From the NCBI RefSeq assembly GCF_016903815.1, contig NZ_CP069973.1: 64,000 nucleotides of DNA; one strand, given 5' to 3'. Made by a program: the position numbers. Every line of letters starts with the position of its first letter. The stretch's first letter is position 1. Positions 9,001 through 11,637 of the stretch are shown piece after piece. This DNA comes from Escherichia coli (GTDB taxonomy: Bacteria > Pseudomonadota > Gammaproteobacteria > Enterobacterales > Enterobacteriaceae).

Positions 9001-11637
9001 CAGTGCCTGCATTACCCGGAGCAACAAAAACAGTTTCAACCAGCGGCGACTGGGCCGCTTTCCAGGCCAGCGCGTGCTCGCGCCCGCCGTTACCAATCAC
9101 TAATACTTTCATCTGTCGCTCCATTAATGGCGGAAATGGCGCATGTCGGTGAAGAGCATCGCAATACCGTGCTCGTCGGCGGCGGCAATCACTTCGTCAT
9201 CACGGATAGAACCGCCAGGCTGGATTACGCAGGTCACGCCCGCAGCGGCGGCGGCATCAATACCGTCGCGGAACGGGAAGAACGCGTCAGAAGCCATCGA
9301 GGAACCTTTCACTTCCAGGCCTTCATCGGCCGCTTTAATACCGGCGATTTTTGCGGAGTACACGCGGCTCATCTGGCCCGCGCCAATACCGATGGTCATA
9401 TTGTTTTTGGCATAGACAATGGCGTTGGATTTCACGAACTTCGCCACTTTCCAGCAGAACAGCGCATCACGCAGTTCCTGTTCGGTCGGCTGACGTTTGG
9501 TGACGACGCGCAGTTCTTCTGCACCGACCATCCCCAGGTCTCGATCCTGAACCAGCAGACCGCCGTTCACGCGTTTGAAATCAAGGCCCGGAACACGCTC
9601 GCCCCACTGACCGCAGGTCAGAACGCGTACGTTCTGCTTGGCGGCGGTGATTTTCAGGGCTTCTTCGCTGGTGGACGGCGCAATAATCACTTCGACGAAC
9701 TGACGAGAAATGATGGCCTGTGCGGTTTCCGCATCCAGCTCGCGGTTAAAGGCGATAATGCCGCCGAATGCGGAGGTCGGGTCGGTTTTGTACGCGCGAT
9801 CGTAAGCATCAAGAATGGAATTGCCGATAGCCACGCCGCAAGGGTTGGCGTGCTTCACAATCACACATGCCGGCTCGGCGAACTCTTTCACGCACTCCAG
9901 CGCCGCATCGGTATCGGCGATGTTGTTATAAGAGAGGGCTTTACCCTGAACCTGGGTTGCGGTAGCAACGGAGGCTTCTTTCACATTCTCTTCTATATAG
10001 AAGGCAGCCTGCTGGTGGCTGTTCTCGCCGTAACGCATATCCTGCTTCTTAATGAAGTTCAGGTTCAGCGTGCGTGGGAAGCGACCGGCGGCTTCTTTGC
10101 TTTCACCGTGGTAAGCCGGAACCATGCTGCCGAAGTAGTTGGCAATCATGCTGTCGTAGGCGGCGGTGTGTTCGAAGGCTTTGATGGCAAGGTCAAAGCG
10201 AGTTTCCAGAGTCAGGGAGCCTTCATTGGCATCTATCTCTTTAATAATGGCGTCGTAGTCGCTGCTCTTCACCACGATGGCGACATCTTTATGGTTCTTG
10301 GCGGCAGAGCGCACCATCGTTGGGCCGCCGATATCGATGTTCTCAACCGCATCTTCCAGCGAGCAACCTTCACGGGCAACGGTCTGGGCGAACGGATACA
10401 GGTTAACAACCACCATATCGATAGGCTGGATCTGATGTTCTTCCATAATGGCATCGTCCTGGCCGCGACGGCCCAGAATGCCACCATGTACTTTCGGATG
10501 CAGGGTCTTCACGCGTCCATCCATCATCTCCGGGAAACCGGTGTAATCGGAAACTTCGGTTACCGGCAGACCTTTTTCTGCTAACAGACGGGCAGTGCCC
10601 CCTGTAGACAGCAGCTCCACACCGCGTGCGGAAAGTGCCTGGGCGAATTCGACGATACCGGCTTTGTCAGAAACACTGAGCAGAGCGCGGCGGACTGGAC
10701 GACGTTGTTGCATGGTAAATCCCCTGGATTTGACTATTACAGAGAGCGTTAGCTGAATTTTTCGCGAAAAACTCAGCTAACGCCCCTAACGGGGCATCCT
10801 TATTTTTCGCCCGCATTGTAACGAAAACGTTTGCGCAACGCTCGCGAATTTTTCTCTTTCAATGGTGATCACAATTTTGACAGTGGTTGCCGTGGGAAAA
10901 ATACAGAAATTACATTGATGATTGTGGATAACTCTGTGCGTAAAAAGGTATAAAGCGGGGTTTTGCTGGGGAATGCAGCAGTCAGTCATTTTTCTGCAAT
11001 TTTTCTATTGCGGCCTGCGGAGAACTCCCTATAATGCGCCTCCATCGACACGGCGGATGTGAATCACTTCACACAAACAGCCGGTTCGGTTGAAGAGAAA
11101 AAATCCTGAAATTCAGGGTTGACTCTGAAAGAGGAAAGCGTAATATACGCCACCTCGCGACGGTAAGCTGAAAGCCGCGTCGCAACTGCTCTTTAACAAT
11201 TTATCAGACAATCTGTGTGGGCACTCGAAGATACGGATTCTTAACGTCGCAAGACGAAAAATGAATACCAAGTCTCAAGAGTGAACACGTAATTCATTAC
11301 GAAGTTTAATTCTTTGAGCATCAAACTTTTAAATTGAAGAGTTTGATCATGGCTCAGATTGAACGCTGGCGGCAGGCCTAACACATGCAAGTCGAACGGT
11401 AACAGGAATCAGCTTGCTGATTTGCTGACGAGTGGCGGACGGGTGAGTAATGTCTGGGAAACTGCCTGATGGAGGGGGATAACTACTGGAAACGGTAGCT
11501 AATACCGCATAACGTCGCAAGACCAAAGAGGGGGACCTTCGGGCCTCTTGCCATCGGATGTGCCCAGATGGGATTAGCTAGTAGGTGGGGTAACGGCTCA
11601 CCTAGGCGACGATCCCTAGCTGGTCTGAGAGGATGAC

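Follow-up and report, generated by a model that had tools for sequence, protein, structure and literature searches.

A probable conserved RNA hairpin in the purHD leader of Escherichia coli and other Enterobacterales

The DNA analyzed here is a stretch of 64,000 nucleotides of Escherichia coli (contig NZ_CP069973.1, assembly GCF_016903815.1), called the window below, and all positions are counted in it unless stated otherwise. It contains the control region and the 5′ leader of the purHD operon, which is encoded on the minus strand. A short GC-rich hairpin (P1) and a long, nearly perfect palindrome (P2) follow one another in this leader. Comparison of sequences from related species indicates that P2 is an RNA-level structure under selection, and the probability that it is a conserved cis-acting RNA structure of the purHD mRNA is estimated at about 0.85. 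Its role is discussed more tentatively below, the favored proposal being a constitutive leader module that determines the context in which the ribosome-binding site lies. Most of the region is already known, and nothing new is added for the PurR operator of purHD, which is textbook knowledge.

The long leader hairpin

An earlier note on this DNA had pointed out a long inverted repeat upstream of purH, with one mismatch between its 17-bp arms, and had suggested that it could form a stable leader hairpin. The repeat is present, consisting of 17 pairs around a CGCG loop with the single mismatch, and the repeat search returned it as two arms of 19 nucleotides (nt) that are 95% complementary and lie 0 nt apart. 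On the purH-sense strand the mismatch is a G·U pair, on the plus strand it is A·C, and this is why the plus strand folds less stably as RNA (−18.6 kcal/mol) than the sense strand (−22.5 kcal/mol, z-score −6.6). P1 and P2 jointly fold at −29.7 kcal/mol. The proposed stable leader hairpin is strongly supported by RNA folding as well as by covariation across the Enterobacterales.

The palindrome is far beyond chance. Only four hairpin-type repeats with stems of at least 14 bp were found in the 64-kb window, P2 being the longest of them, and in 60 composition-matched Markov simulations the longest stem had a mean of 12.2 and never exceeded 15, compared with 19 for P2. Its predicted pair probabilities range from 0.71 to 1.0, with 16 of the 17 pairs reaching at least 0.92 regardless of the flanking sequence. 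According to these folding models, P2 is the sole structurally certain part of the leader.

Conservation and covariation

The purH loci of 80 species were retrieved using the N-terminus of PurH as query. A long hairpin stands at the same leader position in Enterobacteriaceae, Erwiniaceae, Yersiniaceae and Brenneria, and a homolog of P2 was found in the purH leaders of 36 Enterobacterales sequences (27 distinct). These hairpins share a conserved base, GCGUUAnCUGA on the left and UCAnnUAACGC on the right arm, followed by UCU. In most Enterobacterales the 3′ end of the hairpin lies 31–43 nt from the AUG. The base stays in register while the total length varies between 38 and 89 nt, with the maximum in Cedecea, and the apex between 4 and about 80 nt. 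Escherichia and Citrobacter have a 4-nt loop, to which 10–50 nt are added in Enterobacter, Pantoea, Erwinia, Serratia and Yersinia. The apical inserts often prolong the helix, as in Yersinia thracica, where 23 of 24 basal stem positions are paired and the hairpin can be read as a helix of about 29 bp.

Covariation was examined in an alignment (A2) of 17 basal positions per arm from the 36 sequences. In A2, 86.7% of the cells are paired, compared with 33–42% if the partner columns are slid by 1–3 positions, and changes on both sides occur in 13 of the 17 pairs. The covariation score is 0.326 versus 0.160 for shuffled alignments, and not one of 500 shuffles matched the observed alignment on any measure. 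Position 7 illustrates the exchange of pairs, being G-C in 14, C-G in 8, U-A in 2 and U·G in 2 sequences. At position 8, 16 of the 27 distinct sequences have a C·C or C·U non-pair, whereas E. coli has a C-G pair. Wobble pairs are also distributed unevenly between the strands, since 29 cells are G·U on the sense strand and 11 are A·C.

Two points temper these figures. The left register of A2 was chosen partly by its pairing score, which favors a structure somewhat, yet this register coincides with the GCGUUA motif. Counted as independent events, G·U and A·C are roughly equal, so that the strand bias is modest.

A covariance model built from P1 and P2 recovered a single locus in the window with 120 bits, besides a 28-bit match that is the trivial opposite-strand reading of the palindrome. 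Elsewhere it found orthologous leaders only, and in the loci of Vibrio, Aeromonas and Pasteurellaceae it found nothing. Within the species, a 401-nt query around the purH leader matched 5419 of 5426 complete E. coli genomes with at least 95% identity. Each E. coli genome has a single locus with the 65-nt element, whose identity reaches 99% or more in 5381 of the 5419 genomes; a second place per genome was read as the palindrome matching itself on the opposite strand. The one variant strain inspected, 23CRST011, has one change in the P2 loop and one upstream of P1, and both stems are intact.

The variable spacing of the arms, the pairing maintained through unrelated sequences and the G·U pair in E. 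coli together argue for a structure of single-stranded nucleic acid and not for a protein site in duplex DNA. This single strand is most plausibly the purHD mRNA.

The apex of the leader hairpin appears to tolerate insertions. In Yersinia, Serratia and Rahnella (loci L028, L031, L034 and L036) the apical inserts contain recurrent short palindromes centered on TATA, e.g., CTCTATATAGAGAG and CTCTATAGAGAG. Furthermore, Photorhabdus caribbeanensis (L037, at about 450–560) has a hairpin with the arms ATGTTATTGCAG...CCCAATAACATG, common to L041 and L044, and an apical insert of about 120 nt. This insert (…GTGAGTGCAGCCAACAAAGAGGCAACTTGAAAGATAACGGGTATA) presumably resembles the enterobacterial repetitive intergenic consensus (ERIC), also called intergenic repeat unit (IRU).

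Promoter, operator and leader features

The features of the purHD control region are compiled in Table 1.

Table 1. Features of the purHD control region and leader, in window coordinates.
Feature	Position	Strand	Basis and remarks
PUR box, PurR operator GCGCAAACGTTTTCGT	10821–10836	−	Sequence, match to the ChIP-chip motif, conservation
Putative −10 hexamer TACAAT	10815–10820	−	Abuts the PUR box directly; conserved
GC-rich discriminator GCGGGC and predicted transcription start (G 10808 / A 10807)	10807–10814	−	7 nt from the −10 hexamer
P1, short hairpin GCCCC-GUUA-GGGGC	10782–10795	−	Folding, recurrence; shares 2 nt with the base of P2
P2, leader hairpin of 17 pairs with CGCG loop and one G·U	10746–10783	−	Repeat search, folding, covariation
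UCUCU tail	10741–10745	−	Directly 3′ of P2; UCU invariant; predicted weak pairing with GGG of P1 lengthens P2
Shine-Dalgarno AGGGGA (10720–10725) in local hairpin AAAUCC-AGG-GGAUUU	10717–10731	−	Predicted pair probability about 0.55
purH coding sequence	9124–10713	−	Open reading frame, translation (start MQQRRPVRR), K-12 annotation; ATG at 10713; purD downstream

On the minus strand the region reads, in this order, ATTCGCGAGCGTT, the PUR box GCGCAAACGTTTTCGT (10836 to 10821), TACAAT (10820 to 10815), GCGGGCG, AAAAAUAAGGAU, P1 with GCCCCGUUAGGGGC (10795 to 10782), P2 with GCGUUAGCUGAGUUUUU-CGCG-AAAAAUUCAGCUAACGC (10783 to 10746), UCUCUGUAAUAGUC, AAAUCCAGGGGAUUU with the Shine-Dalgarno sequence inside, ACC and the AUG (10713). 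This leader stretch is identical letter for letter to that of K-12 MG1655, where the coordinate is the window position plus 4196819.

The PUR box named in the earlier note is a documented binding site. Its 16-mer is identical to the motif ACGAAAACGTTTGCGC that was assigned to purH-purD at 4205663–4205678 (older K-12 coordinates) by chromatin immunoprecipitation on microarrays (ChIP-chip), in which a peak showed that PurR occupies purHD in vivo in cells given adenine (Cho et al., 2011; PMC3159470). By our arithmetic, these coordinates correspond to the positions in Table 1 via an offset of about 1977 bp between K-12 sequence versions. The box is kept in nearly all Enterobacterales purH loci compared. 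Like the other operators of the pur regulon it is an imperfect palindrome of 16 bp in the promoter spacer, it agrees with the classical PUR-box consensus ACGCAAACGTTTTCNT in all specified positions except the first, and as a documented member of the E. coli regulon it shows no difference from the others. A second PurR site in the arm of P2 was considered and discarded, as judged by eye only about 6 of 14 half-site positions agree.

The PUR box would overlap the core promoter predicted here, abutting the conserved TACAAT, and the block of PUR box and TA(C/A)AAT is found at fixed spacing in about 40 Enterobacterales species. A scan for consensus promoters did not flag the purHD promoter because its −35 region is weak. 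After the −10 hexamer, a GC-rich spacing and then G/CAAAA are conserved across species. The discriminator at 10809–10814 (minus strand), GCGGGC in E. coli, is GCCCGC or GCCACC in other genera and is likewise conserved across species. Promoters with GC-rich discriminators are typically sensitive to guanosine tetraphosphate (ppGpp) and DksA.

Transcription probably starts near 10808, about 7 nt after TACAAT, as judged from the −10 hexamer and from the constant distance of 23–28 nt between the promoter block and P2 in about 30 species. Both hairpins would then lie inside a 5′ untranslated region (UTR) of about 95 nt. The earlier placement of the palindrome between the promoter and the start codon is consistent with this; on the promoter side it depends on the conserved PUR-box/TACAAT block.

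The short GC hairpin noted previously is also there, with the sequence GCCCCGTTAGGGGC read from 10795 to 10782 on the minus strand. On its own P1 folds at −10 kcal/mol. A hairpin of 4–5 bp between a C-run and a G-run adjoins P2 in about 29 of 36 species, with highly variable loops (GTTA, GTAA, GAAA, GCCT, TTTTA, TTTTTTAC and others) and one compensatory variant, GCCTC/GAGGT, in locus L012. Outside P2 the leader has near-isoenergetic alternatives, in which P1 reaches a probability of 0.07–0.11, an extension of P2 by pairing of GGG with UCU one of 0.41–0.68 and the local hairpin around the Shine-Dalgarno sequence one of about 0.55; the extension of P2 also appears in the RNAalifold consensus. 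The UCU concerned corresponds to the columns T39, C40 and T41 of A2, which are invariant.

In the Enterobacteriaceae group, the predicted local hairpin around the Shine-Dalgarno sequence does not vary in sequence. Erwiniaceae and Yersiniaceae have CAAAGCCAAGGGAUAAAACC in this region, and the local hairpin is not formed.

A mini-ORF (AUG CCC CGU UAG) at 10786–10797 on the minus strand overlaps P1, and an AAGGA stands in front of it with essentially zero spacing. In Citrobacter and Kluyvera the corresponding frame encodes MPRKGR and ends with the UAG that lies in the P2 base, and in many species it is absent or in another frame. As a leader peptide the mini-ORF AUGCCCCGUUAG was rejected, since it lacks a usable Shine-Dalgarno spacing and neither its frame nor its length is conserved; it is probably not translated.

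Divergently to purH, the rRNA operon rrnE is encoded on the plus strand, its 16S rRNA starting about 615 nt from the purH start. Perfect matches to GYTCTTTAANA at 11188–11198 and 13108–13118 (plus strand) represent the BoxA antitermination sites of the rrnE leader and the 16S-23S spacer. In addition, three further long hairpin-type inverted repeats with stems of 14–18 bp are located in the window at 4963–5008, 16352–16383 and 45765–45793. They are terminator-like, and A/T runs within some of the stems suggest a bidirectional function.

Leaders in other Gammaproteobacteria

In the Vibrionaceae, a different long hairpin is present in the purH leader, about 30–170 nt upstream of the ATG at locus position 1201 (L040, L043, L047, L048, L051, L053, L057, L064, L068, L071, L073 and L077). 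It has a conserved base and a variable apex of 4–68 nt and ends 28–40 nt before the ATG, as in AAAGGTCTTTACCAAAA...TTTTGGCAAATATCTTT and AGGATATTTCCCAA...TTGGGAAATATCCT. One position of this hairpin is A·C in Vibrio, G-C in Grimontia and C-G in Photobacterium. The architecture is analogous to that of the Enterobacterales leader, and the sequence is unrelated. Aeromonas (L050, L056 and L058) has yet another hairpin in the purH leader, and the purH leader of the Pasteurellaceae is short and unstructured.

Proposed role of the leader module

It is known that PurR binds the PUR box, in the spacer just upstream of the putative −10 hexamer, and so represses initiation when purines are plentiful. The following role is proposed for the leader, with somewhat less than even confidence. 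The transcripts that are made would begin with a single-stranded 5′ tail of 13 nt, followed by P1, by P2 without a linker and by about 33 nt with the Shine-Dalgarno sequence. P1 and P2 would fold co-transcriptionally and could tie up more than half of the leader, together with any apical inserts, in an inert tandem-hairpin module. This would leave a pyrimidine- and A-rich platform for binding of the 30S subunit about 30–40 nt upstream of the AUG. The module may thus set the translation efficiency of purHD constitutively and, via ribosome occupancy, the lifetime of the mRNA, and it would not be a purine-responsive switch.

A constitutive module explains why the apex is free to vary while pairing is under selection. 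The placement is consistent with it, as the hairpin ends at a similar distance from the AUG in Enterobacterales (31–43 nt) and Vibrionaceae (28–40 nt).

Several points weigh against such a module. Both the extent of the leader and any influence on expression are themselves inferred. For the effect on translation or transcript stability that the earlier note suggested, computational probes of specific mechanisms gave weak or negative results. A purely structural insulator explains neither the near-invariance of the basal 6–7 pairs and the UCU tail nor the short unstructured leader of the Pasteurellaceae. Moreover, the G-run of the Enterobacteriaceae Shine-Dalgarno sequence is predicted to be largely paired locally, so that the platform is not simply open.

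Alternative explanations

Since the near-invariant base and UCU tail are left unexplained, an operator regulated by a protein or nuclease stays the main rival to the constitutive module. P2 would here serve a trans-acting factor recognizing double-stranded RNA, either RNase III or an RNA-binding regulator, as its operator or processing site and would provide post-transcriptional control independent of PurR. The geometry would suit RNase III, because P2 with its GGG:UCU extension forms a continuous helix of 17–20 bp, about two turns, and substrates of RNase III have about 20 bp of near-continuous double-stranded RNA. The basal stem and its flanks are conserved in sequence beyond what pairing alone demands, and the frequent C·C or C·U non-pair at position 8 resembles a recognition feature more than a neutral helix, although in E. 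coli this position is an ordinary C-G pair. No candidate protein for P2 is known. Among the RNase III cleavage sites that Gordon et al. (2017) list for the purH-rrsE intergenic region, as far as the listed entries go, the only RNase III-dependent site is assigned to the rrsE rRNA leader, which is a weak negative. This site corresponds to window position ~11055 (K-12 4207874), on the rrnE side near the start of the rrnE P1 promoter and outside the purH leader. On balance, an operator or processing site of this kind is considered unlikely.

A lower probability is assigned to P2 acting as an attenuator or pause hairpin, at which some transcripts would stop or pause in the pyrimidine-rich tail and so tune the read-through into purH. 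A very stable hairpin is indeed followed by a conserved U/C-rich tail (UCUCUGUAAU in E. coli), which is richer in U in Pantoea (UCUUAUUUAUUU) and Serratia (UCUUUAUAUUG), and the terminator tail scores of 1.8–2.95 lie above the mean of the background (0.68). However, the E. coli tail UCUCUGUA has only 4 U in its first 8 nt and scores 1.85, compared with 3.97 for the rrnE terminator region and 2.14 for the 95th percentile of the background, and a terminator scan did not flag P2 on the minus strand. Apical inserts of 60–80 nt are atypical of intrinsic terminators, and a competing antiterminator is not evident, as P1 and P2 overlap by only 2 nt. The name purH is absent among the listed entries of Term-seq supplements, which is weak evidence in the same direction.

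Equally improbable is a translational switch between P1 and P2. The ribosome-binding site would be usable when P1 is formed; otherwise the G-run of P1 would pair with UCU, and its freed C-run with the G-run of the Shine-Dalgarno sequence. In 1990, Flannigan et al. reportedly described two dyad symmetries of the purHD mRNA leader that exclude one another. The RNAalifold consensus of 19 Enterobacteriaceae leaders contains both CCCC:GGGG, involving the Shine-Dalgarno sequence, and GGGG:CUCU, and the energies of the forced states (−41.6, −40.4 and −38.7) differ by less than 3 kcal/mol. Yet if the first 33 nt of purH are included, the predicted probability of the anti-Shine-Dalgarno pairing in E. 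coli falls to 0.015. It is below 0.15 in 25 of 31 modelled species and reaches about 0.6 only in L018 and L021. Pairing between any C-rich hairpin arm and a G-rich Shine-Dalgarno sequence can also arise by chance, and no signal that would flip the switch is known.

A more far-reaching speculation, of similarly low probability, joins P1 and P2 with the similarly placed hairpins of Vibrionaceae and Aeromonas. They could be the operators through which gammaproteobacteria control purHD after transcription and independently of PurR, perhaps by means of a nuclease or an RNA-binding protein that responds to folate status or to 5-aminoimidazole-4-carboxamide ribonucleotide (AICAR, also called ZMP) and its triphosphate ZTP. 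Such control would fill the role that the ZTP riboswitch has in other bacteria.

At the level of DNA, the palindrome could be a cruciform or a protein-bound site between the divergent purHD and rrnE promoters, or the remnant of a mobile palindrome, each of which is regarded as very improbable. In E. coli it is a near-perfect palindrome of 38 bp with an AT-rich center, situated about 260–300 bp upstream of the very strong rrnE P1 promoter, and its conserved ends with a variable interior recall terminal inverted repeats. Against this, a fixed dimeric site is ruled out by the arm spacing, which ranges between 4 and about 80 nt and also makes a cruciform unlikely outside the Escherichia group. The upper stem stays paired with wholly different sequences, the mismatches that persist are G·U when read as mRNA, and each of 5419 E. 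coli genomes has only one copy of the element.

The least credible alternative treats the tail after P2 as a BoxA for Nus factors, with P2 as boxB, as in rrn leaders. Near-BoxA tails occur in Serratia (CGCUCUUUAUAUUG), Brenneria (CGUUCUUUAAUGAC) and Pantoea (CGCUCUUACUCU), but the E. coli tail GCTCTCTGTAA agrees with the published consensus GYTCTTTAANA in only 7 of the 10 specified positions and has C at position 6, T6C being one half of the double substitution C4T/T6C that has been used to inactivate the suhB BoxA; a pattern search allowing one mismatch recovered the rrnE sites at 11188 and 13108 and not the purH tail, which is invariant in its non-consensus form throughout the Enterobacteriaceae group.

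Further candidates were rejected. A plus-strand terminator made of the complement of P1 (P1′) and a T-run was flagged by the scan, but in all species the T-run begins 5–9 nt past the stem. A kink-turn or C/D-like motif, suggested by CUGA/UGAUG in Pantoea, lacks tandem G·A pairs. An obstacle to the scanning of RNase E is unlikely, given that the enzyme is reported to bypass readily those stem-loops that are orthogonal to the RNA path (Richards and Belasco). Finally, a stabilizer at the very 5′ end of the ompA type does not fit, as P1 lies about 14 nt from the predicted 5′ end.

Comparison with known systems

A search of Rfam with E-values up to 10 returned only chance matches, namely mir-725 (23.8 bits versus a gathering threshold of 76) and SpF22. 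A ZTP, purine or other known riboswitch was rejected because of this result and because P2 of E. coli is an uninterrupted helix with no pocket-forming loop. The purHD leader shares with the ZTP (pfl) riboswitch that a conserved structured RNA lies directly upstream of purH, but the conserved internal loop or junction that would form a ligand pocket is absent from P2 of E. coli.

As stable conserved cis hairpins in the leader of a single operon, the 5′ hairpin of ompA, which is a stabilizer, and the leader hairpins of pnp and rnc, which are cleaved by RNase III, are comparable. The purHD hairpin differs from the former in its non-terminal position, and from the latter in that RNase III cleavage is absent among the entries listed by Gordon et al. 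(2017). With the pyrBI and pyrE attenuators it has in common a hairpin followed by a pyrimidine-rich tract in a nucleotide-biosynthesis operon, whereas its U-tract is poor and it has neither a conserved leader peptide nor an antiterminator.

Inverted repeats with conserved ends and a variable interior are also characteristic of repetitive extragenic palindromes (REP) and the bacterial interspersed mosaic elements (BIME) built from them, of ERIC sequences and of miniature inverted-repeat transposable elements (MITEs). The purHD palindrome differs from them by its single copy, its orthologous position in three families and its covarying pairs. A repeat of the REP, ERIC or MITE kind was rejected, as one locus per genome was found in the 5419 genomes and one locus in the window with the covariance model.

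Biological meaning

To our knowledge, the depth of conservation of the purHD leader hairpin has not been described before. The leader palindrome is more than a peculiarity of E. coli, since selection has maintained it as an RNA hairpin in Enterobacteriaceae, Erwiniaceae and Yersiniaceae. Rfam has no family for it, and it deserves follow-up as a reasonable, if modest, candidate. We know of no ZTP riboswitch in enteric bacteria. If the hairpin is only a constitutive module, it would be an example of ordinary 5′ UTR architecture; if it is regulatory, the AICAR-consuming enzyme would prove to be under a second level of control in bacteria without a ZTP riboswitch.

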